Source: Escherichia phage fjerdesal. Taken from it: 64,000 nt of DNA. This document shows positions 1,435 through 53,469 of this stretch, one piece after another. The notes beneath the pieces are model-generated. The model saw only the letters and a program-made list of their open reading frames with translations. It searched no databases and was not told the origin of the DNA. The stretch lies in the sequence record MN850605.1; one strand, given 5' to 3'. A program made the position numbers and the translations under genes. The first letter of the stretch is position 1. Every line of letters begins with the position of its first letter.

Positions 1435-3092
1435 AATATCTTAAGAGCCTCCTTAATTGGGGGCTTTTTAATTTTTATAAAATTTTATCGGTTGTCCCAA
1501 CCTCTGGGTCACCATCATATGTGAATAAAATATCTATCCTTCTTAACAACCTTCTTAATCTTACTCTCTATATAGTTATATAGTACTATATAGTATCTTA
1601 GTAACTATCTAGTGGTCTTAATAGCCCTCTGTATAGCCCTTCTAAATAGCCATCTAAACACTCTTCTAACAAGCCTTCTAAACAACCTATACAATCATCT
1701 TAACCATCTCTCTATATCCTCTTAGAAGCTCCTATACACCTCTTAATCTCTAGGTTAGCTATGTTACTCTCTATAGGTGTTCACTAGGTACTACTAAGCC
1801 TCTATATAGACTGTTTTAACAAACTTAACAGGAATATCTTCACAGACCTTATCTCACAAGGTCTAACACGGTACTAACAAGGTATCTTATAAGCCTGTTA
1901 TTACCTGTATTTTTAAAAGGCTGTATAGGTAATTATTCAGAATCTTAAAATTTTTATAAAATAGGGCTATCAAGTCATTTTTTAGGGTCTTTGAAGGAAC
2001 TGAAAAATATCTGATTAGGATGTATATCTGCTTGGTAGCCCTTAACAGCCCCTTAACACCCCCTTTGCAAAATTTTAAAATATCCTTAACAATCTCTTAA
2101 CAGTTCTCACATCTTCTTAACAACCCTTCAAAGGTCTTAACAGATTCTTAACAGAACTAACAAGGCTGTAACAGTTTTCTAACAAGTGCTGAATAGGCTT
2201 TACAGAATCTTAACAGATGACTAACAAGAGCTAACAAGTTAATTTTAAAGAGTTATTTTGTTAAGATAATTAACAAGTTCCTAACAAGTGTTTAATCTTT
2301 TTAACAAGCTATTAACATGGTCACTATCTCTTGGTCTATAGTTCCCTTTCCCTCTTAGTGATTCTTTAAACATACCTCTTAAAAGCTCTCTATAGCTCTT
2401 TATAAGCTCTTTTAAGTCTCTTCCTAGTAGTTACACCCCAACTATACAGAAAGCTTTTTATAGGGCTTTACAGGAGCTTTTAAGGCTATGTCAAAGGCTC
2501 TTACAAGGCTTTTACATGGTCTTAACAGAGATTTAACAAGGGGCTAACAAGTCTCTAACAAGTGCCTTAAAAGCATAACTATGTAGGGATTGTTAAGAAA
2601 TTGTTAAGAAAATGTTAAGGGGGCTAGCATTTACGTAACTTTTAAGCTACTTTATATCCCCTATAACATACTTTTAAGACACTAACAAGCCCTTTTTAGA
2701 TATTCACAAGATAGCTAACGAGATGATAAAGCTTACACCCTTATAAGATTCTTTTAAGGCTGTAGGAAGCTTTATAAAGAGCTTTTAAGGGTGAGTTAAT
2801 GCAATCCCTTAAGTTAGGTTGATAAGGCTGTTATAGAGCTTTATAGAGCGTTTAAACGGTTGCCCTTCCCTTTCGGGTTATGGGCTTTTATTTAAGTTGA
2901 TTTGATAAGAGATTATAGAGTAGACTATAGAGTTATTGCTTTTAAGGTCTGGTAAGATTCTATCGAATCAGTAGGGTAGATTCTGGAAAGGAAAGGAAAG
3001 GGATTGTATAGAGGTTATTACATAGACGTAAAAAAGCCCCTATGAGAAGGAGCTTTGCAGGTATCTGGGGCTATTTAGCCCCGTTGCGTCGA
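1435..3092. repeat. 1.65 kb ORF-free region densely packed with short YTAACAR motifs (CTTAACAA, CTAACAAG, TGTTAAG) in both orientations; G-poor top strand
   Basis: no ORF of 60 aa or more on either strand; motif recurrence read directly; lies between convergent gene ends. Confidence 0.6.
1447..1469 (+). terminator. hairpin (GCCTCC-TTAATT-GGGGGC) followed by T5
   Basis: seen in sequence directly after the stop at 1434. Confidence 0.45.
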
Positions 3093-3341
3093 TTAGTTGT
3101 AACCTTGTTTATTGTAGTACAGTGAGATAATCAAGTCACCCCAGTAATGATAGTGATGCTCGTCGTTTAATGCCTCTTTTACAGCGTCTTTCCAGAAGTC
3201 ATCAGTAGGGTTATAATCTGGGATAACTTGCTTGATAACTGTCTTCACTAATGAAAAGCATTCATCAGTTCCACCGATATCAAATTTAACGTCCAGAGTA
3301 TAACAGCCATAAGCATTGACAGTTGCGCGGATAGTTGCCAT
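3093..3341 (-). CDS. hypothetical early protein
   Basis: ORF; start immediately follows a conserved intercistronic module with SD AGGAGA. Confidence 0.5.
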   Translation of the reverse strand: MATIRATVNAYGCYTLDVKFDIGGTDECFSLVKTVIKQVIPDYNPTDDFWKDAVKEALNDEHHYHYWGDLIISLYYNKQGYN

Positions 3342-3418
3342 TTTTTGAATCTCCTAGTTTAAGGACTTTACTTAGTGGGGAAGGTCATTCCCTCCCCGTT
3401 GATTAGTAATTTACTGCA
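3342..3418 (-). promoter_or_regulatory. conserved intercistronic module, variant A (stop codon - GGGGAAGG/CCTTCCCC hairpin - CCACTAAAT - AGGAGA - ATG)
   Basis: near-identical copies at 4269, 4831, 6054, 6925, 8451. Confidence 0.55.
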
Positions 3419-3674
3419 TGTTGGCGTATGTTGCAAGCCTTTTTTCGTTGTATTTTGTCAGAATCTCACAAGATAAAACATCATATTTTGTAACCGCTTT
3501 GCCTTTGTCGAGGTCAAAGAATCCGAACGCTTTACCATCTTTGAATCCGACAACTTCGTAAGATTCTTTGATGATTTCACCATTGAACAAATCACTTTCG
3601 ATACGGTGAAATAATGCTACATCTTCTTTGTCGGTTGCAATTTGTAAAAGTGTGGTTAATTCTACGTTTTCCAT
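3411..3674 (-). CDS. hypothetical early protein
   Basis: ORF; stop codon lies inside the conserved module. Confidence 0.5.
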   Translation of the reverse strand: MENVELTTLLQIATDKEDVALFHRIESDLFNGEIIKESYEVVGFKDGKAFGFFDLDKGKAVTKYDVLSCEILTKYNEKRLATYANMQ

Positions 3675-3745
3675 CTTGATGCCCCTAGTTTAAGGATTTT
3701 ATTGAGTGGGGGAGGTCATCCCCCGTTAATGAGTAATTTACAGAT
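3675..3745 (-). promoter_or_regulatory. conserved intercistronic module, degenerate variant A
   Basis: ctagtttaaggatttt...ggggaggtcatcccccgttaatgagtaatttac. Confidence 0.45.
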
Positions 3746-4268
3746 TTTTGATTGTCTCGTCAATGTCTTTTTCAATAGCTTTTAAAGTTTTTTCTAAGTT
3801 CTTGATATTGAAAGATAAACCCTCTCCCAATGTTTTGCTGTAACCACTAGGGCGCAAGTCATGCAGTTCGATTTCTTCCACTTCGAAGAGACTAACCAAC
3901 TCACCGCTTACACTGTAAGCCATTGAAACAGTATTTACAGGGGCTTTATAGAACTTGTTTAAGGACTTGATAGAACGCTCATAAGCCATTTTATAACCGT
4001 TTAAAAGGTCTTTAACGTGGTTGCGAACGTTTTTACACTCATCTAAGTAAATCCCTAAGAATAGCGGTAATAACTCTGCTACAGCTTGCATAAAGTGAGA
4101 GACTACAACGGTTGCAACATTACGACGATGTACATAATAAGCCCCATTTTCTGATTTAGTGATGGTTGCAAAGTGTACCCCATTGCAGCGAAATTCGTAG
4201 GTATCTTTAACAGGCTTAGCCATTACAGCATTTGAACGAATGTAGTTGATAGCTTGAAATTTGTTCAT
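3738..4268 (-). CDS. hypothetical early protein
   Basis: ORF 3738-4313 trimmed to ATG at 4268 (MNKFQ...) which directly follows the conserved module and SD. Confidence 0.5.
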   Translation of the reverse strand: MNKFQAINYIRSNAVMAKPVKDTYEFRCNGVHFATITKSENGAYYVHRRNVATVVVSHFMQAVAELLPLFLGIYLDECKNVRNHVKDLLNGYKMAYERSIKSLNKFYKAPVNTVSMAYSVSGELVSLFEVEEIELHDLRPSGYSKTLGEGLSFNIKNLEKTLKAIEKDIDETIKNL

Positions 4269-4345
4269 TTTTGAATCTCCTAGTTTAAGGACTTTATTTA
4301 GTGGGGAGGTCATTACCTCCCGTTGATTAGTAATTTACTTGTTTT
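4269..4345 (-). promoter_or_regulatory. conserved intercistronic module, variant A
   Basis: catttttgaatctcctagtttaaggactttatttagtggggaggtcattacctcccgttgattagtaatttac. Confidence 0.55.
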
Positions 4346-4488
4346 GATATCTGATTGCAAGCAATTTTTTAAGTTTATCTATAAAGAATCTTTTAAGTTA
4401 ATCCCTTTTAGATAAACCCCCTCGAACAAATCTACCAATGTCAAGGGGCGTTGTCAATACTTTTTGAAAGTTTTTTGTAAGTTATTGA

Positions 4489-4830
4489 TTAACTGATGAA
4501 TATTTTTTCAGGTTTTACATAGCTGATACGCTGACTTTTTAGCAGGTCATCCCAGATTAACGCGGCGATATGGGCATAACCGGATTCACGTAAAAGCTTC
4601 ATTGTTTTACTTCTCGTTTCAAAACGGCTTGCGTAGTACTCACTATTTAAAACCGTTTTATTCCCTTCGTTATCTACATGGATAATCTGCATCACTTGAA
4701 AGGGGCTTGTGTCCTCGCCTTTGTTCCACTGTTCAAAGTATTTTAGGCACTGCATAGGTGACATCTTATCACTTACTTGAGTTGACCAAGATGAATTTTC
4801 TTTATCGGTAATTACGGTTACATAAGCCAT
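4489..4830 (-). CDS. hypothetical early protein
   Basis: ORF preceded by module variant A. Confidence 0.5.
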   Translation of the reverse strand: MAYVTVITDKENSSWSTQVSDKMSPMQCLKYFEQWNKGEDTSPFQVMQIIHVDNEGNKTVLNSEYYASRFETRSKTMKLLRESGYAHIAALIWDDLLKSQRISYVKPEKIFIS

Positions 4831-4910
4831 TTTTGAATCTCCTAGTTTAAGGATTGTACTTAGTGGGGAAGGTCATTCCCTCCCCGTTGATTGACAATTT
4901 ACAGATTTTT
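4831..4910 (-). promoter_or_regulatory. conserved intercistronic module, variant A
   Basis: sequence identity to the other variant A copies. Confidence 0.55.
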
Positions 4911-4921
4911 ATCAGGCTTGT

Positions 4922-5155
4922 CTAGTCTTTTTCAATGATAATTTCATACTGACCATCTACGCTGTCAAAATAGATACCGTCTTCATCTTCTGTCTTAAAG
5001 TAACATTGTATATCATCACTAGCGGGATAGTCTTGTCTTGCTATCTGACAGACCTGAACAGCATTTTCTTTACTTCCTGTAAACTCCTCAAGCCCTTTAA
5101 AATCACATGAATGACCATTACAAATAGAAAGGATAAGATAAACGGTTGTAAGCAT
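4922..5155 (-). CDS. hypothetical small protein with hydrophobic N-terminus (possible signal peptide)
   Basis: MLTTVYLILSICNG...; preceded by a hairpin rather than the standard module. Confidence 0.4.
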   Translation of the reverse strand: MLTTVYLILSICNGHSCDFKGLEEFTGSKENAVQVCQIARQDYPASDDIQCYFKTEDEDGIYFDSVDGQYEIIIEKD

Positions 5156-5172
5156 GATTTAAGCCTCTTAAA

Positions 5173-5189
5173 AGCCCCTGTGAGGGGCT
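5173..5189 (-). terminator. hairpin AGCCCC-TGTGA-GGGGCT followed by T-run on the minus strand
   Basis: seen in sequence after the stop of 5222-5764. Confidence 0.5.
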
Positions 5190-5221
5190 AATCAGTGTTT
5201 ATAAGGTGATTGCATAGGTTT

Positions 5222-5764
5222 TTAGAAAAAGCTCTTTAAATCTCTCTCTGTGATGTTTCCCGCTAGTGTATCCATGATGTCACAAAAAACCTGAATACTA
5301 TCCGACTGTTGAATACTTTTAGCAAGAAGCTCCAGAGACTCATCAAGATAATTTAAATTTGGGTTATCCAATGAAGGAAGACAAAAAGGCGAAAACATCG
5401 CATTAAACTCGGTTACGTAAACCTTTTTAATCCAATTTAAATCGAAGTATTCTGTAAAACTTGCTACGCCAGACATATTATCACAAGAATAATCATCATT
5501 CAGGTCATCCTCTGGGATATCAAGTTCTAAGATAACAATATTTTGGGTTTTCATCTGGAAAGCGGCCGTAATAGTGGCATTACCTAACGCTTGCTGGATG
5601 CCTTCGGCTGTTATCTCTTCCTCATCGTCGCCATAGATTTTATTTTCTGGATACACGTAAAAATTGCCGTCCATGTCCGAACAATTCCATGCACCTGATG
5701 GCTTGTCACCGTTATTAATCAGGTTGAGGAAATTTTCTTGAGTAGTACCGTGAAAGCATTTCAT
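5222..5764 (-). CDS. hypothetical acidic early protein
   Basis: ORF; D/E-rich. Confidence 0.5.
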   Translation of the reverse strand: MKCFHGTTQENFLNLINNGDKPSGAWNCSDMDGNFYVYPENKIYGDDEEEITAEGIQQALGNATITAAFQMKTQNIVILELDIPEDDLNDDYSCDNMSGVASFTEYFDLNWIKKVYVTEFNAMFSPFCLPSLDNPNLNYLDESLELLAKSIQQSDSIQVFCDIMDTLAGNITERDLKSFF

Positions 5765-5849
5765 TTTTGAATCTCCAGTTTAGGATTTAGTGGTAAAGCT
5801 CTTTATCTGGGGCTTACTTTATCGAACTATAAGCCCCTTGTAAAGTACT
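5765..5849 (-). promoter_or_regulatory. conserved intercistronic module, variant B (hairpin GGGGCTTA...TAAGCCCC - CTTTACCACTAAATCC - GGAGA - ATG)
   Basis: copies at 6581, 7635, 7999. Confidence 0.55.
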
Positions 5850-6053
5850 TTATTTGTTATTTTTTACTACTTTTAAAACCGCACGATAGCCTAAGCAATA
5901 GGAATCACCGAAGAGCGACCGACCCATGAAGGAGTCCTCTGTAATATCTTTCGCCGTGACGGTTTTTTCTACGCCGTGAAAGAGAACTACATCACCGACT
6001 TTAATATCTTTGATGTGTGTAGTTTCAATGGTTAAACCGTTAATAATAGCCAT
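5850..6053 (-). CDS. hypothetical early protein
   Basis: ORF preceded by module. Confidence 0.45.
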   Translation of the reverse strand: MAIINGLTIETTHIKDIKVGDVVLFHGVEKTVTAKDITEDSFMGRSLFGDSYCLGYRAVLKVVKNNK

Positions 6054-6128
6054 TTTTGAATCTCCAGTTTAGGACTTTATTTAGTGGGGAAGGTCATTCC
6101 CGCCCCGTTGATGTGTAATTTAATCTAT
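6054..6128 (-). promoter_or_regulatory. conserved intercistronic module, variant A
   Basis: sequence identity to other variant A copies. Confidence 0.55.
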
Positions 6129-6160
6129 CTGAAAACCAATGTCAACAATTTTTTTTTTTT

Positions 6161-6580
6161 TTAGAGTTCTGCATAAATTGCATCACAGATACCACGAAAA
6201 TCATGATTTGTCAAATTACGTTGTAACCAAGTGGCGAAAAAGTCAGCGATTGCAAAGTTAGCGTCATACTCGACAGATAGCCACACTTTAACAGCAAACC
6301 GAAACATTTTCAAATCAAGCTCTTTATTCATTACCTTAGATTTGCCTAACATGTCGGACATTTCATATTGTGCACCGTCTAGCGTGATACCTGCTGCAAC
6401 GTCAGCCAATGAGTTTTTTACGTTTTCAACGTCTAAGATAACGCTTTGAATCTTCCCAATAATGTTGTGCAATGTTTCGTCCGGTGCTGATGACGTAATA
6501 ACATTAATCCGGTTAACGGTCAAACGTGCTTTTAAGATTGATAACTCGCGATTATTAATAGCCATTTTTAAGTTCTCCAA
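6161..6580 (-). CDS. hypothetical early protein (N-terminus MENLKMAI shared with 7726-7998)
   Basis: ORF; first 8 codons are part of the repeated module. Confidence 0.5.
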   Translation of the reverse strand: MENLKMAINNRELSILKARLTVNRINVITSSAPDETLHNIIGKIQSVILDVENVKNSLADVAAGITLDGAQYEMSDMLGKSKVMNKELDLKMFRFAVKVWLSVEYDANFAIADFFATWLQRNLTNHDFRGICDAIYAEL

Positions 6581-6651
6581 TTTAGGATTTAGTGGTAAAG
6601 CTCTTTATCTGGGGCTTACTTTATCGAACTATAAGCCCCTTGTAAAGTACT
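6581..6651 (-). promoter_or_regulatory. conserved intercistronic module, variant B
   Basis: near-identical to 7999-8069. Confidence 0.55.
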
Positions 6652-6924
6652 TTATACTAAATGCAGCTTTTTACCTTTTACTATGATGTAACTCGATGCG
6701 CTATTGCTTTGCACATCCTGATAAATTCTGCGCAAACGGCCTTCGTAGTATACTTTCCAACTGGTTGGAATCTTTTTCCCGTATCCTGTAGCAGTTTTTT
6801 GTAGTCCTGCAAGTTGCCAATCTAAGATATGTTGTTCGGCTTGTAAATCCTCGAAGTGCATTACACCGTTCACATAGTGACGAAGGGTTACGTTTAAGGT
6901 GCGACCGTTGTTAGTAGTATACAT
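6652..6924 (-). CDS. hypothetical early protein
   Basis: ORF preceded by module variant A. Confidence 0.45.
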   Translation of the reverse strand: MYTTNNGRTLNVTLRHYVNGVMHFEDLQAEQHILDWQLAGLQKTATGYGKKIPTSWKVYYEGRLRRIYQDVQSNSASSYIIVKGKKLHLV

Positions 6925-7000
6925 TTTGAATCTCCTAGTTTAAGGACTTTGTTTAGTGGGGAGGTCATTACCTCCCGTTGATTAGTAATTTACTTGTTTT
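6925..7000 (-). promoter_or_regulatory. conserved intercistronic module, variant A
   Basis: sequence identity to other variant A copies. Confidence 0.55.
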
Positions 7001-7011
7001 AAAAACCAAAA

Positions 7012-7344
7012 TCAAGAGAAATTTTTTCGTTTGCTCAATTCTTGAACAATTACAGCGTAGTAGTCTTTTAAGTCACTGACATTTAAAGCATTTATCAGAG
7101 AATTATAATCATCGACTAACTGAAAATCATCTTTGAAAATGTCGCTGATTTGATAAGTTTTTGATTGAAATCTGAAGCTCATTTCTAACCGTTTTATTTG
7201 TTCATCACTTAAACGCTCCAGAAAGCTCATTACAAGGCTATTATTGACCTGTTGCGTGATTGCCTTATTTGCTAGATTATAGGCTTTATATGCCTTATAT
7301 AGCGCGAAAATGGCAATGATTGCAGTGATACCAGTCATTAACAT
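7012..7344 (-). CDS. hypothetical membrane protein (N-terminal transmembrane helix)
   Basis: MLMTGITAIIAIFALYKAY... Confidence 0.45.
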   Translation of the reverse strand: MLMTGITAIIAIFALYKAYKAYNLANKAITQQVNNSLVMSFLERLSDEQIKRLEMSFRFQSKTYQISDIFKDDFQLVDDYNSLINALNVSDLKDYYAVIVQELSKRKNFS

Positions 7345-7634
7345 GGTGTTTCCTCTTTACGTGATACTTTGCCATTTACAGTTATCTCATAAGAATCTAG
7401 TAAGTCACTTTTAGATTTTACTGGACTTTTAAAAGTATCATCATAAATATTTACTTGCAATACAGGTTTTTTATACTCCCTGCAACTATTCCATAAACAA
7501 ATCACTACACGACGGCCTTTTATTTTACCGTGCAACCATTCCATAACATCATGATTATTTCTTGATGTCTCGATAAAATCAATTTTGTTGAGTAACTTGC
7601 TTAGATTTTCACGAACTTTATTGGATAATTTCAT
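7338..7634 (-). CDS. hypothetical early protein
   Basis: ORF preceded by module. Confidence 0.45.
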   Translation of the reverse strand: MKLSNKVRENLSKLLNKIDFIETSRNNHDVMEWLHGKIKGRRVVICLWNSCREYKKPVLQVNIYDDTFKSPVKSKSDLLDSYEITVNGKVSRKEETPC

Positions 7635-7725
7635 TTTTGAGTCTCCTAGTTTAAGGGTTAATTTGATAAAGCTCTTTATCTGGGGCTTAAGATATCAACT
7701 TTTAAGCCCCTTGTAAAGTACTTTA
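7635..7725 (-). promoter_or_regulatory. conserved intercistronic module, variant B-like
   Basis: hairpin GGGGCTTAAGATATCAACTTTTAAGCCCC plus conserved leader. Confidence 0.5.
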
Positions 7726-7998
7726 TCAGATTAAATTGCCAGTTAATGATAAGTGCATTTTGTAACCTTGTTTAGTGAATACGTTCACTTTACCGAGTGT
7801 TTTTACACCTTTAAAAAGGTTATTTGAACTGCGTTTTAAGGTTAAATGTTTATCAGCCTTCACGCCCCACCTTACATTAGATTGTTTTCCGTTGTCAACC
7901 ACTTTCCCGCATAACTTTTTAGCCATAACGCGAGCGTCATCACGAGTTTTTGCAGCAATTACAACGTTTTTGATAATAGCCATTTTTAAGTTCTCCAA
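7726..7998 (-). CDS. hypothetical basic early protein (N-terminus MENLKMAI shared with 6161-6580)
   Basis: ORF preceded by module variant B. Confidence 0.45.
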   Translation of the reverse strand: MENLKMAIIKNVVIAAKTRDDARVMAKKLCGKVVDNGKQSNVRWGVKADKHLTLKRSSNNLFKGVKTLGKVNVFTKQGYKMHLSLTGNLI

Positions 7999-8069
7999 TT
8001 TAGGATTTAGTGGTAAAGCTCTTTATCTGGGGCTTACTTTATCGAACTATAAGCCCCTTGTAAAGTACT
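7999..8069 (-). promoter_or_regulatory. conserved intercistronic module, variant B
   Basis: near-identical to 6581-6651. Confidence 0.55.
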
Positions 8070-8450
8070 TTATTTAATTTTGAAGATAGTTACGTAACCA
8101 TCACTACCGATTATTTGAGACACTCCAGCTTTTTCTACTTGATAGCCCATATTTTCAAGATGATAAACAGCATCATCATAACCATATGCGCCACCCTGAT
8201 AACGTCTCTTATCGCATTTTATCAGGTTTTTACCACGTCCCGCAAGTGCATGCAAAATGGCTTTTTCACTTGAAAGAGTACCATCTAGCATTGTCGCCGT
8301 GTAATGGTTGATTTTATTCCCGTTAATATCATACTTGAAATTGAACGAGTGAACAACAATAACGTTACCTTTAAAATTCTCATCAAGTGACTTCTCCAGT
8401 ACGCTACGAAAGTTGTCTTTGTTGATGAATTTAGGTGCACGATATTTCAT
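8070..8450 (-). CDS. hypothetical early protein (first gene of the leftward early cluster)
   Basis: ORF preceded by module variant A carrying a poly-C tract. Confidence 0.5.
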   Translation of the reverse strand: MKYRAPKFINKDNFRSVLEKSLDENFKGNVIVVHSFNFKYDINGNKINHYTATMLDGTLSSEKAILHALAGRGKNLIKCDKRRYQGGAYGYDDAVYHLENMGYQVEKAGVSQIIGSDGYVTIFKIK

Positions 8451-8520
8451 TTTTGAATCTCCTAGTTTAAGGACTTTAATTTTTGGGGTCCGGCATTTCC
8501 CCCCCCCCCCCGTTGATGCA
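8451..8520 (-). promoter_or_regulatory. conserved module variant A in which the hairpin is replaced by a 13-nt homopolymeric C tract (8499-8511)
   Basis: seen in sequence. Confidence 0.5.
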
Positions 8521-8727
8521 AATACTAGATAACCCCGTTCAAAGAGTCAAGAAAATTTTAAAAATATTTTTGGGAAAACTGTAATGAAACGTGCGCACAC
8601 GACTACCACAAAACAGAACACAAATCAAGAATTATTTTTCAATCCGCTACAAATTTTTCTCTTGACTTTTGGGGAGAGGGGGAGTAAGAGGGGGAGAGGG
8701 GTTGGTCTGGCTCTCTATAAAAACCTA

Positions 8728-8905: not shown

Positions 8906-8978
8906 AAAAGCCCTCCTTACCTGAAAAATTTACCAGATAAGAAAGGCTTAGTCTATTGTGAATATCCTACGAAGTTTC

Positions 8979-14523: not shown

Positions 14524-14574
14524 CTTATTACTCTCTCTTGTTAGTTAATCAATCAATTTGTGAGGCTATTTTAA

Positions 14575-14590
14575 GGGGCTTTGAAGCCCC
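14575..14590 (-). promoter_or_regulatory. intercistronic palindrome GGGGCTTTGAAGCCCC embedded in a possible sigma70-like promoter (minus strand TTGACA-17/18-TTAAAAT)
   Basis: seen in sequence between rIIA stop and rIIB start; same stem family at 19697 and in module variant B. Confidence 0.4.
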
Positions 14591-14602
14591 TTGTCAAACA
14601 CT

Positions 14603-19696: not shown

Positions 19697-19712
19697 GGGG
19701 CTTGGAAGCCCC
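19697..19712 (-). terminator. intercistronic hairpin GGGGCTTGGAAGCCCC
   Basis: seen in sequence between prs and NAMPT. Confidence 0.45.
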
Positions 19713-21420: not shown

Positions 21421-21439
21421 GGGAACCTTTACAGTTCCC
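21421..21439 (-). terminator. hairpin GGGAAC-CTTTACA-GTTCCC with T-run on the minus strand
   Basis: seen in sequence. Confidence 0.5.
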
Positions 21440-53423: not shown

Positions 53424-53469
53424 TATAAATTTTCCTCTTAAAAGGGGCTATAAAGCCCCTGTAAAGAAA

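Follow-up and report, generated by a model that had tools for sequence, protein, structure and literature searches.

The eleven repeated elements that precede most of the small leftward ORFs at 3093-8450 of the window (the whole 64,000-nt stretch of Escherichia phage fjerdesal DNA analysed here, record MN850605.1) are probably self-contained early-gene expression cassettes of the PeSL ("promoter-early stem-loop") type, to judge from their sequence and from their counterparts in related phages. One variant, A, would carry a 5'-protective hairpin, and the other, B, a hairpin with a processing, protective or attenuating role. Both variants appear to consist of a sigma-70 promoter, a stem-loop and a Shine-Dalgarno (SD) sequence, with promoter activity being something that we infer from the conserved elements described below.

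Eleven repeats in one early cluster

The window is from a Felixounavirus and has 99.6% identity to Escherichia phage heid. An earlier note on this DNA had described eleven modules in two variants in front of early ORFs, and repeat and motif searches bore this out: a unit of 90-100 bp lies directly 5' of 11 of the 13 small leftward ORFs at 3093-8450 (seven of variant A, four of variant B), the downstream genes being small and of no known function. The repeat search returned a 73-nt family with seven copies (3342-3414, 3673-3745, 4268-4340, 4830-4902, 6051-6123, 6923-6995 and 8450-8522) and a 100-nt family with four (5754-5853, 6556-6655, 7627-7726 and 7974-8073). All eleven are on the coding (minus) strand, adjoin the ORF starts on their upstream side and are confined to a single 5.2-kb cluster. 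In the motif searches, GGGGCTT-N15-AAGCCCC gave five matches (0.03 expected), CTTAAACTAGGAGATTCAAAAATG with up to three mismatches gave six (0.00 expected), and TAAATT-N5-TCAACGGG with up to three mismatches gave 18 (6.6 expected), of which those with at most one mismatch all fall inside the cluster.

The two cluster ORFs without a cassette are ORF 4922-5155, preceded by a hairpin with TTTT and an SD, and ORF 7012-7344, which overlaps its upstream ORF by 7 nt. The GGGGCTT/AAGCCCC stem does recur, as had been noted, at 14575-14590 and 19697-19712. Flanking and related elements are as follows.

3028-3056, minus strand: intrinsic terminator closing the cluster, AAAGCTCC...GGGGCTTTTTT, equivalent to Felix O1 t23
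3067-3082, minus strand: cassette-like hairpin CAAC-GGGGCTAAATAGCCCC-AGATA downstream of the final ORF, lacking both a promoter and a T-run; conserved among Felixouna-, Moogle- and Suspviruses
5173-5189, minus strand: hairpin AGCCCCTCACAGGGGCT, then TTTT, directly 5' of the SD of ORF 4922-5155, in the sole intergenic gap of the cluster without a cassette
8908-8949, minus strand: intrinsic terminator upstream of the cluster, equivalent to Felix O1 t13
14568-14597, minus strand: related element outside the cluster; TTGACA 14592-14597, spacer hairpin GGGGCTTCAAAGCCCC 14575-14590, TAAAAT 14568-14573

Layout of the two cassettes

Cassette A begins with an A-rich tract, followed by a TTGACA-like -35, exactly 17 nt, a TAAATT -10, 10 nt, a G-run/C-run hairpin, an A-rich leader and GGAG(A) 7-8 nt 5' of the ATG. 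With the mRNA start set from the usual -10-to-start distance of 7-8 nt, we infer that A-type mRNA begins 2-4 nt before the hairpin.

3339-3436, minus strand: cassette A1; -35 TTGCAA 3431-3436; -10 TAAATT 3408-3413, its TAA being the stop of ORF 3411-3674; hairpin GGGGAGGGAATGACCTTCCCC 3377-3397; SD AGGAGA 3350-3355; ATG 3339-3341
3672-3763, minus strand: cassette A2; -35 TTGACG 3758-3763, within the upstream ORF; -10 TAAATT 3735-3740, its TAA being the stop of ORF 3738-4268; hairpin GGGGGATGACCTCCCCC 3708-3724; weak SD AGGGG; ATG 3672-3674
4266-4360, minus strand: cassette A3; -35 TTGCAA 4355-4360; -10 TAAATT 4332-4337; hairpin GGGAGGTAATGACCTCCC 4304-4321; SD 4276-4281; true ATG 4266-4268 (the ATG of the heid record, 4311-4313, falls in the hairpin loop)
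4828-4924, minus strand: cassette A4; -35 TAGACA 4919-4924, its TAG being the stop of ORF 4922-5155; -10 TAAATT 4896-4901; hairpin 4865-4885; SD 4838-4843; ATG 4828-4830
6051-6145, minus strand: cassette A5; A13 tract; -35 TTGACA 6140-6145; -10 TAAATT 6117-6122; hairpin GGGGCGGGAATGACCTTCCCC 6086-6106, with one C·U mismatch; SD 6061-6066; ATG 6051-6053
6922-7015, minus strand: cassette A6; -35 TTGATT 7010-7015, including the TGA stop of ORF 7012-7344; -10 TAAATT 6987-6992; hairpin 6959-6976; SD 6931-6937; ATG 6922-6924
8448-8550, minus strand: cassette A7, first of the cluster; -35 TTGACT 8545-8550; -10 TAGTAT 8522-8527; hairpin 8485-8511; SD 8458-8464; ATG 8448-8450

In cassette B, TTTACA, 17 nt and TAnnnT lie inside the DNA for a two-part hairpin of about 60 nt. 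Its lower stem is AU-rich and begins at the stop codon of the preceding gene, its upper stem is GC-rich, and a 3x3 internal loop separates the two.

5762-5852, minus strand: cassette B1; box1 TAAAGTAC 5845-5852, its TAA being the stop of the upstream gene; -35 TTTACA 5839-5844; -10 TAAAGT 5816-5821; upper stem GGGGCTTA/TAAGCCCC 5809-5837; box2 AGATAAAGAGCTTTAC 5793-5808; SD 5772-5776; ATG 5762-5764
6563-6654, minus strand: cassette B2, identical to B4 over 100 nt (100%); box1 6647-6654; -35 6641-6646; -10 TAAAGT 6618-6623; box2 6595-6610; SD 6574-6578; ATG 6563-6565
7632-7725, minus strand: cassette B3; box1 7718-7725; -35 7712-7717; -10 TATCTT 7689-7694; box2 7666-7681; SD 7642-7646; ATG 7632-7634
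7981-8072, minus strand: cassette B4; box1 8065-8072; -35 8059-8064; -10 TAAAGT 8036-8041; box2 8013-8028; SD 7992-7996; ATG 7981-7983

The hairpins, the CCACTAAAT leader, GGAGA and ATG are thus all present as the earlier note had them; its module order, from stop codon to hairpin to leader, was right in its parts but missed the promoter elements between stop codon and hairpin, where the stop codon often forms part of a promoter hexamer.

Predicted promoter elements and their conservation

The same elements are found across four Ounavirinae genera, in which the promoter positions are invariant and spacers and loops vary. For A, the comparison covered 81 unique copies from 20 sources, and in 81/81 T[TA]Gnnn stands exactly 17 nt 5' of TAAATT, TAAAGT, TAGTAT or TAATAT, although such unique-sequence counts overstate independent events because the copies are related by descent and gene conversion. 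The -35 hexamers among these 81 are TTGCAA (28), TTGACA (17), TTGACG (13), TTGACT (9), TTGATT (7) and TAGACA (7), and the promoters have at least 12 unrelated spacers, several of them within different upstream coding sequences. For B, the opening T and A of the -10 are unpaired in the loop and invariant while adjacent loop columns vary (70 aligned unique copies). Among 71 unique B copies there are ten different TAnnnT hexamers 17 nt after TTTACA, with one copy having TAAAGC and four fitting at 18 nt; an upstream TAAAGT of B, which has no -35 partner, serves as an internal control.

A generic promoter scan gave 8 of the 11 cassettes at least 9 of 12 consensus matches, with the A1, A3 and A6 promoters matching at only 8 of 12 positions. 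The B promoter might be weak, given the GC-rich AAGCCCC between its -10 and the predicted start. In every cluster compared, the leading cassette is of type A, never B. These sigma-70-type elements, seen by sequence and comparison, favor the suggestion in the earlier note that the modules are early promoters, and host sigma-70 RNA polymerase would read all eleven. Felix O1 ORFs 16, 20, 21 and 22 reach their RT-PCR maximum at 5 min, in line with early expression (PMC3185647); a literature search found no measured transcription start, RNA 3' end or half-life for any Ounavirinae phage.

Alternatively, there could be no internal promoters: the promoter at 8522-8550 would give a single polycistronic early RNA, with the elements serving purely as RNA-processing and stability sites, like the RNase III sites between the early genes of T7. 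The architecture of B is indeed T7-like (AU-rich lower stem, internal loop, GC-rich upper stem), its energy is near the -17 to -24 kcal/mol that our folds gave for intercistronic hairpins of the T7 early region, and the pairing signatures sit on the sense strand. However, processing alone would leave unexplained both the invariant T and A of TAnnnT in an unpaired B loop 17 nt from TTTACA and the constant 17-nt distance to the -10 of A-type -35 hexamers that lie in unrelated coding sequences, and we regard it as quite unlikely.

The hairpins as RNA structures

The B elements fold at -21.6 to -26.2 kcal/mol (z = -5.5 to -6.1), with 0 of 200 shuffles equally stable, and 97.7% of cells are paired, vs. 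32-59% with the partners slid. Compensatory G-C to U-A changes occur at columns 7-58 (9 sequences) and 20-45 (7 sequences), columns 22-43 have U·G in 39 copies vs. C-G in 30, and 47 unique hairpins contain 23 G·U pairs vs. 1 A·C. As read from these alignments, the compensatory changes and G·U pairs fit sense RNA alone. The A-type stems comprise at least 14 sequences, each 10 nt after the -10, a fixed distance that, like the compensatory pairs, could be traceable to few events. Most are GC-rich at -9.5 to -14 kcal/mol (B is at about -22), several Moogle- and Suspvirus A hairpins are weak at -3.6 to -6 kcal/mol, and the A7 hairpin of the window is degenerate, with a G13 run and a folding z of 0.14.

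The earlier note had also raised an operator-like palindrome, i.e., a DNA site for a phage repressor shutting off early transcription. The palindromes do overlap or abut the promoters, and the flanking boxes of B, AAAGnnCTTTAC, are highly conserved and near-palindromic. Nevertheless, the A stems differ in sequence, length and loop (at least 14 forms), the G·T pairs in the stems would be mismatches if the sites were DNA palindromes, and the B half-sites are about 47 bp apart. In addition, single genomes, e.g., Maleficent, have one B pair both as G-C and as T-A, which a sequence-reading protein would not tolerate. An operator role is therefore highly improbable.

The hairpins could instead be intercistronic terminators or attenuators, with each cassette stopping upstream transcription and restarting its own, which is the terminator/insulator role given to the stem-loops in the original PeSL model (PMC2839356). 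They are GC-rich and follow stop codons, and a B-like hairpin also lies 3' of the last ORF. However, a T-run 3' of the stem was found in none of about 150 unique A and B copies (the sequence there is ACTAAAT or AACAATCC in A and AGATAAAGAG in B), and a terminator scan of the window found no terminator at any cassette. The same phage does have T-run hairpins at both ends of the cluster, one of them after the terminal cassette-like hairpin. Furthermore, the A promoter lies 5' of the hairpin, so that efficient termination there would cut short the very mRNA that the cassette starts, and the first cassette of each cluster keeps its hairpin despite standing behind a terminator and a 400-nt gap. Since in a reporter assay one RB49/phi1 PeSL stem-loop lowered lacZ expression downstream to the same extent as rrnB T1 did (PMC2839356), the missing T-run leaves some room for termination or attenuation, and we consider this role unlikely rather than negligible.

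On the reading that we prefer, expression cassettes with RNA-level hairpins, the 5'-terminal stem-loop of A would shield the mRNA from 5'-end-dependent decay by RppH and RNase E, which require single-stranded 5' ends (PMC3997798), so that 5' structures stabilize; the A-rich leader with GGAG(A) would then drive translation. RNA initiated at the B promoter would start immediately beyond the upper stem and so leave out the hairpin. Only read-through RNA from upstream would have the B hairpin, at the 3' end of the preceding cistron. There it may be a processing site, as its resemblance to RNase III sites suggests, and it may also, or instead, protect the RNA 3' end or serve in attenuation.

Recombination between cassettes

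Module-mediated recombination had been proposed in the earlier note from the identity of two genes (6161-6580 and 7726-7998) over their first eight codons, MENLKMAI. That identity is a product of TTG-start ORF calling: the GenBank record of heid starts both genes 15 nt further on, at an ATG (6565 and 7983), and what the two share as "codons" is the SD (GGAGA), its spacer and ATG-GCT-ATT. The proposal itself, that recombination between cassettes occurs and adds and removes small ORFs, is supported by phage comparison. In phage AYO145A an extra 513-nt ORF stands between two cassettes of which B3 is a chimera, marking an ORF-sized indel. Orthologous ORFs are preceded by A or by B depending on the phage, and the ORFs lying between cassettes vary by gain and loss. 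Lineage-specific variants are common to all copies within one genome, and, because copies are near-identical, homologous recombination would homogenize them; recombination between repeats would delete, insert and re-pair the intervening small ORFs.

Being repeated, homogenized within genomes and located at indel boundaries, the elements might also be seen as recombination scars, selfish or neutral, or as miniature mobile elements that regulate nothing. We find this scarcely credible, as they all point the same way, sit precisely between the stop codon of one gene and the start of the next, supply the sole SD of the downstream ORF, have no terminal inverted repeats or target duplications, and are kept in four genera where the coding sequence is at 70% identity or below the detection limit.

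Comparison with known systems

Both variants are represented in the Felix O1 genome paper (Whichard et al. 2010, PMC3185647), its 57-bp direct repeat CTTTACATGGGGCTTAAAAGTCTGTAAAGTAAGCCCCAGATAAAGAGCTTTACCACT being cassette B and its 39-bp direct repeat TTGACACTGGTTTTTAGATAGATTAAATTACACATCAAC the promoter half of cassette A. That paper gives the elements only as repeats, none of them among its five predicted promoters, and states that transcription regulation is unknown.

Cassette A resembles the 5'-terminal stabilizing stem-loops of the ompA and papA 5' UTRs and of the T7 gene 10 leader: its GC-clamped hairpin is predicted to come no more than 2-4 nt after the transcript start, and behind it lie an A-rich leader free of structure and a strong SD. 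Unlike such stabilizers, the A stems are short (4-8 bp) and some are weak, their 5' end is predicted from promoter geometry, and the A hairpin would also occur in read-through RNA.

Like the T7 early RNase III sites (R0.3, R0.5, R1, R1.1 and R1.3, assigned to the folded hairpins by published coordinates, as the T7 record does not annotate them), the elements lie between cistrons of an early gene block transcribed by host polymerase. The stems and internal loop of B match theirs in arrangement, with both at about -17 to -26 kcal/mol. Promoter and hairpin are paired in T7 too, where the minor E. coli promoters B and C and the T7 promoters phi1.1A/B and phi1.3 adjoin intercistronic regions. In contrast, there is no sequence similarity, the apical loop of B has 11-13 nt vs. 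3-5 nt in T7, and the B internal loop is symmetric (3x3).

The closest known kind is the PeSL cassette of the T4-like phages RB49/phi1, PST/T4 and nt-1/KVP40 (Arbiol et al. 2010, PMC2839356; Comeau et al. 2014, PMC4122927). Both have an upstream stop, an AT-rich tract, a sigma-70-type -35/N17/-10, a G-run/C-run stem-loop, and the SD and ATG of a small unknown ORF. PeSL stem-loops occupy five positions relative to the promoter (PMC2839356), and here too the position differs by subclass: the A stem-loop follows the -10, and that of B, like the one at 14568-14597, spans both spacer and -10. Both lie in regions of variable gene content where indels and replacements between relatives are bounded by cassettes, and the Felix O1-like cassettes undergo the same gene-adding and gene-removing recombination as already described for T4-like phages. 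The Ounavirinae are, however, another phage subfamily, with no sequence homology implied, and have one cluster rather than many hyperplastic regions and just two sharply conserved architectures common to four genera, of which B is a two-part hairpin enclosing its promoter. Also unlike PeSL, neither hairpin is followed by a T-run and the pairing is specific to sense RNA, which, on sequence evidence, points to a role in RNA stability or processing rather than termination.

Cassettes in front of the small leftward ORFs

A repeat search recovered seven copies of a 73-nt unit (variant A, copies A1-A7) and four copies of a 100-nt unit (variant B, copies B1-B4) at the positions where an earlier note, made from the sequence alone, had placed its repeats. 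The copies stand in front of 11 of the 13 small leftward ORFs that make up the block at 3093-8450, in keeping with that note's statement that nearly every small ORF is so preceded. In three motif searches the observed and expected numbers of matches were 5 and 0.03, 6 and 0.00, and 18 and 6.6, respectively. No A or B cassette was found in the rest of the window or in a further 17.5 kb of Escherichia phage heid (MN850577). The feature is real, and the interpretation first given to it is partly right. The block is bounded and interrupted as follows.

Features bounding and interrupting the cassette cluster
8908-8949, minus strand: hairpin and T-run upstream of the cluster, corresponding to Felix O1 terminator t13
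7012-7344, minus strand: ORF without a cassette, overlapping the upstream ORF by 7 nt
4922-5155, minus strand: ORF without a cassette, preceded by a hairpin with TTTT and a Shine-Dalgarno sequence (SD)
3067-3082, minus strand: promoter-less, cassette-like hairpin CAAC-GGGGCTAAATAGCCCC-AGATA after the last ORF
About 3028-3056, minus strand: hairpin and T-run downstream of the cluster, corresponding to Felix O1 terminator t23

Positions 3000-8600 of the window are 99.6% identical to heid and share 85-92% identity with many phages of the Felix O1 type (Felixounavirus, Ounavirinae). One compared record, PP892526 (phage vB_EcoM_I14.1), bears the taxonomy line Demerecviridae/Tequintavirus yet is 90.5% identical to the window locus over the whole 5.6-kb query with the same gene order, and is probably mislabelled. 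A PHROGs scan of 10 ORFs placed all of them in families of unknown function, and a Pfam scan of 10 ORFs returned no match; jointly the two scans cover all 13 ORFs. In Felix O1, ORFs 16, 20, 21, and 22 of this block reach their RT-PCR maximum 5 min post-infection (PMC3185647).

Every cassette terminates in GGAG(A) and an ATG, and the stop codon of the upstream gene overlaps the -35, the -10, or box1 (the 5' arm of the variant B lower stem). For heid gene 33 (heid_33), the annotated ATG at 4313 falls inside the A3 hairpin loop and gives a product of 191 aa, and an SD-preceded ATG at 4268 gives 176 aa; the latter start is the one annotated in phage AYO145A.

Evidence for embedded promoters

All seven A and all four B cassettes contain sigma-70-like -35 and -10 hexamers with a spacing of about 17 nt and an AT-rich upstream region, as do the 81 unique A copies and 71 unique B copies compared, which come from 20 sources. 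The cassettes thus appear to carry sigma-70-type promoters, with activity as a prediction. Since a generic promoter scan, which returned 27 sites against 18 ± 3.9 expected, is unconvincing alone, the argument for promoters rests on this comparative conservation. An IMG/VR scan with the pattern CTTTACA-N28-38-GATAAAGAG yielded mostly single chance matches, along with 8 useful contigs that were multi-copy or Felix-like. No transcriptome or start-site map for Felix O1 or other Felixounavirus members was found in the literature searched. A reading of GCTTGCAA, present in some A promoters, as a T4 MotA box was rejected because it lies 17 nt from the -10, not about 12, and because the Felix O1 genome paper does not report MotA/AsiA-like genes (PMC3185647).

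Variant A consists of an A-rich tract, the -35, exactly 17 nt, the -10 (TAAATT; TAGTAT in A7), 10 nt ending in ATCAAC, a hairpin that opens with G3-8 and closes with C3-8, an A-rich leader, GGAG(A), 6-8 nt, and the ATG. Across the 81 unique copies, the promoter spacing is always 17 nt and the hairpin always starts 10 nt after the -10. At least 12 unrelated spacers occur, as do at least 14 hairpin sequences, whose folding energies range from -3.6 to -15 kcal/mol. Often the left half of the promoter falls within the upstream gene.

Variant A -35 hexamers and upstream stop codons (minus strand)
A1: TTGCAA; the stop codon is the TAA of the -10
A2: TTGACG; the stop codon is the TAA of the -10
A3: TTGCAA
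A4: TAGACA; the stop codon is the TAG of this hexamer
A5: TTGACA
A6: TTGATT; the stop codon TGA lies within this hexamer
A7: TTGACT

Given these overlaps with stop codons and upstream genes, different coding sequences each appear to have kept a -35 at the correct distance, which is hard to account for except by selection for a promoter.

Homopolymer runs of G13 and C10 occur among the A hairpins. In A7 (8499-8511) a G13 run replaces the usual 5' arm, and the fold is no better than that of shuffled sequences; in phage I14.1, a C10 run lies in the A hairpin of the cassette upstream of the 176-aa ORF. These runs are either hypervariable homopolymers or sequencing errors.

Variant B is organized as box1 ([T/A]AAAGnnC), TTTACA, 17 nt, TAnnnT, AAGCCCC, box2 (AGATAAAGAGCTTTAC), leader, SD, and ATG, with the TAA of box1 usually serving as the stop codon of the upstream gene. 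Its RNA folds into a hairpin of about 60 nt (-21.6 to -26.2 kcal/mol, z = -5.5 to -6.1), and none of 200 shuffles was equally stable. Box1 and box2 pair as a lower stem of 11 bp with one mismatch, above which lie a 3x3 internal loop, a 9-bp upper stem (GGGGCTTA../..TAAGCCCC), and an 11-13-nt loop. Ten -10 hexamers in the set of 71 unique copies fit TAnnnT at 17 nt, one copy reads TAAAGC, and four fit at 18 nt; the hexamers include TAAGAT, TAAAGT, TATCTT, TAGTAT, TAATCT, TATGAT, TAGGAT, TAACTT, and TATAGT. The opening T and A are unpaired in the loop and invariant in 70 aligned copies, with variable loop columns adjoining them, and this is the pattern expected of a sigma-70 -10 element, not of an RNA loop. 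The TAAAGT of box1 aligns with the A -10 and has no -35 partner, so A and B look homologous and the embedded promoter would be the active one in B. The upstream TAAAGT was itself tried as a -10 and rejected, the hexamers 17 nt upstream of it being unrelated coding sequence.

The hairpins as sense RNA

In the B alignment, 97.7% of cells pair, compared with 95.0 ± 0.3% in shuffles (0 of 500 reach 97.7%) and 32-59% when the partners are slid. The lower stem shows a compensatory change from G-C to U-A in 9 sequences (columns 7-58), and the upper stem shows one in 7 sequences, each from an Erwinia phage (columns 20-45); at columns 22-43 U·G (39) alternates with C-G (30). Because the copies are related by descent and conversion, these amount to few independent events, and the B covariation is real but thin. 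A further candidate, the variant GGGGTTTAA...TTAATCCCC in one other compared locus, was rejected as a U-A compensatory step after a recount gave a U·U mismatch. Over 47 unique hairpins, G·U pairs number 23 and A·C pairs 1; as G·U pairs form only in the sense RNA, selection on the hairpins appears to act on the sense transcript and not on a DNA palindrome or the antisense strand.

An operator-like palindrome, as proposed in the earlier note, is unlikely on this comparison, because the A stems vary freely in sequence and length and both versions of the covarying B pair coexist in a single genome; the G·T positions moreover break the DNA symmetry. Nor do the cassettes resemble intrinsic terminators, in which a GC-rich hairpin is followed immediately by a T-run: no T-run follows the hairpin in any A or B copy, the sequence 3' of the hairpin being ACTAAAT or AACAATCC in A and AGATAAAGAG in B, and a terminator scan was negative at all cassettes. 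T-runs do follow hairpins at both cluster ends (3028-3056 and 8908-8949). The hairpin after the last ORF, CAAC-GGGGC..GCCCC-AGAUA as RNA, occurs in every Felixounavirus, Mooglevirus, and Suspvirus, and a T-run terminator lies 12 nt beyond it, forming a tandem pair conserved in the three genera. Rfam at permissive E-values assigned no family, the sole hits being sub-threshold matches of the long hairpin of B3 to miRNA-precursor models (E = 0.098 and 0.71).

Recombination at the cassettes

Recombination mediated by the repeated module had been suggested earlier from the identity of two genes over the first eight codons, MENLKMAI. That identity is an artefact of calling the ORFs from TTG starts (6580 and 7998): in the GenBank record of heid both genes begin at an ATG 15 nt downstream, so the shared stretch is the SD, the spacer, and ATG-GCT-ATT. 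The suggestion itself is favored by other observations, namely a chimeric cassette, exchanges of A for B, and gain and loss of ORFs. Cassette B3 is a chimera of two AYO145A cassettes flanking a 513-nt ORF that heid lacks; its left part is identical to the cassette upstream of that ORF and its right part to the cassette downstream, with the crossover within CCCCAGATAAAGAG[C/A]TTTA. Among the 12 phages compared, ORF order is conserved, ORFs are gained or lost between cassettes, and orthologous ORFs (e.g., the MKCFHGT family) are preceded by A or B depending on the phage. In phage Barry, positions 6062-6326, annotated as "Repeat_01", hold a duplicated B cassette fused to a 3'-end fragment of the upstream gene, which we read as another recombination footprint at a cassette.

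Copies are homogenized within lineages. Of 48 Felixounavirus-type copies, 42 have TAAATT as the A -10; of 32 copies from Moogle-, Susp-, and related viruses, 24 have TAAAGT. The B arm likewise sorts by lineage as GGGGC (39 of 42), GGGGT (42 of 45), or GGTGT (8 of 8 Erwinia-phage copies).

Proposed mechanism

Given the usual distance of 7-8 nt from -10 to start, a transcript from an A promoter would have 2-3 unpaired nt ahead of its hairpin. Single-stranded 5' ends are needed by both RppH and RNase E, the accepted reason that 5' stem-loops stabilize mRNAs (PMC3997798). As the predicted start adjoins the hairpin, the A hairpin would act as a 5' stabilizer beside a promoter and a strong ribosome-binding site. 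A transcript from the B promoter is predicted to start at the A of AGAUAAAG, immediately 3' of the upper stem, and would thus be without the hairpin. The B hairpin would instead be carried by read-through RNA alone, where the upstream cistron ends. Every cluster opens with an A cassette and never with B, consistent with such a role. For the B hairpin we prefer RNase III-type processing, 3' protection, or both, judging from its structure and position, with attenuation as an alternative.

A core of CAA(C)-GGGG...CCCC-A is common to A, B, and the promoter-less hairpin after the last ORF. We think it very improbable that a dedicated phage protein, which could be a recombinase, a nuclease, or an RNA-binding factor, recognizes this core and that the cluster is an integron-style array in a virulent phage, from which ORF-plus-cassette units are cut out, perhaps as mini-circles, to re-enter at hairpins and not be shuffled by general homologous recombination. 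A lesser form of this idea, also improbable, concerns B alone, which would be a dual DNA/RNA element whose internal promoter and an RNase III-type cut yield the same mRNA 5' end near AGAUAAAG.

Other elements nearby

Over 153 unique contexts the leader takes one of two forms, CCT-AAACT-GGAG (105) or CCTT-AAACT-AGGAG (48), with no mixed forms (e.g., 3350-3366 and 6061-6075). The extra T and extra A of the longer form would add one pair to a mini-hairpin of 3-4 bp (UCCU/AGGA, loop UAAACU) that partly covers the SD; their co-variation may reflect selection for pairing or simply tight linkage.

A 175-nt non-coding gap before A3 (4338-4457, minus strand) contains a good sigma-70 match, TTGACA-17-TAGATT with TGn, at 4429-4457, followed by a 49-nt AU-rich hairpin at about 4371-4419 (-16.4 kcal/mol, z = -3.2). 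Felix O1, Maleficent, and SUSP1 share the conserved hairpin sequence GTTTATCTAAAAGGGATT..AAGATTCTTTATAGATAA, and in Maleficent a 46-aa membrane ORF comes after it. This element could be a small RNA or a leader.

At 5173-5189, 19697-19712, 21421-21439, and 53444-53459 (minus strand), a GC hairpin with a short T-run is followed directly by an SD and ATG with no promoter, as in AGCCCCTCACAGGGGCTTTTAAGAGG..ATG and CTTTACAGGGGCTTTATAGCCCCTTTTAAGAGG..ATG, a design suggestive of leaky terminators or of 3' hairpins within operons. A third stem-loop/promoter arrangement lies outside the cluster:

14568-14597, minus strand: TTGACA and TAAAAT with a spacer that is almost all hairpin (GGGGCTTCAAAGCCCC), and TAAAGTGT before the -35

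Two non-coding regions near the cluster have features of their own. A 400-nt non-coding region separates the first cassette from the terminator upstream and holds a pyrimidine-only tract, CCAACCCCTCTCCCCCTCTTACTCCCCCTCTCCCC, at about 8671-8703 (minus strand). At about 1617-2619, some 1.5 kb of non-coding sequence separates divergent gene blocks; its repeats, annotated as repeat_region in the heid record, include several TGTTAAG units, a long imperfect hairpin lies near 2619-2661, and the region could be an origin or packaging region.

Significance

The Felix O1 genome paper lists five candidate promoters and describes read-through past terminators and temporal control as not understood (PMC3185647). 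The cassettes provide a testable map for an early-expressed block of small genes, with 11 predicted start sites in 5.2 kb. The predicted starts fall at about 3400, 3727, 4324, 4888, 6109, 6979, and 8514 for A and at about 5808, 6610, 7681, and 8028 for B. The cassettes also predict points at which ORFs can be exchanged in the Felix O1-type phages that serve in Salmonella typing and biocontrol, reveal mis-called gene starts in GenBank records, and supply compact, naturally insulated promoter, 5'-hairpin, and ribosome-binding-site parts. Their occurrence in the Ounavirinae points to promoter-hairpin linkers as a general means for virulent phages to exchange small accessory genes.

Comparison with known systems

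When folded for comparison, the T7 early intercistronic hairpins, which we take to be RNase III sites, have the same layout as B, itself intercistronic and an interrupted helix of about 20 bp (11 + 9 bp with a 3x3 internal loop); the T7 RefSeq record itself carries no RNase III site annotation. That record does place promoters adjoining the intercistronic hairpins. The A stems differ from the T7 sites in reaching just 4-8 bp.

In the Felix O1 genome paper, 57-bp and 39-bp repeats are listed without interpretation and none is among the predicted promoters (PMC3185647); neither the wV8 paper nor the 2021 Felixounavirus comparison mentions these repeats. The closest description we found is that of the promoter-early stem-loop cassettes (PeSLs) of the T4-like phages RB49 and phi1. 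In these, a stop codon is followed by an AT-rich tract and a sigma-70 promoter, the G-run/C-run stem-loop takes any of five positions relative to the promoter, and the unit closes with an SD and ATG; the cassettes are enriched in variable regions upstream of ORFans and recombine with one another (PMC2839356; PMC4122927). The PeSL literature found consists of two T4-like studies, genome reports, reviews, and passing citations, none concerning a Felix O1-like phage, and the PeSL authors report no evidence for the mechanism in viruses beyond the T4-like phages.

As far as sequence features go, the PeSL description closely matches the window cassettes. Both span the distance from an upstream stop codon to a downstream SD and start codon, and in both the stem-loop varies in position, lying in the window 10 nt after the -10 in A, across the spacer, the -10, and downstream bases in B, and in the spacer at 14568-14597. 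PeSL stem-loops are likewise described as polyG/polyC-rich. The window cassettes also cluster before small ORFs of unknown function in a region of variable gene content, with indel and replacement breakpoints falling in the cassettes, as in the B3 chimera, the A/B swaps, and the Barry duplication. In contrast to PeSLs, they belong to another phage subfamily (Ounavirinae), follow just two sharply conserved architectures common to four genera, include in B a long two-part hairpin that encloses the promoter, and combine the absence of a T-run with a sense-RNA signature.
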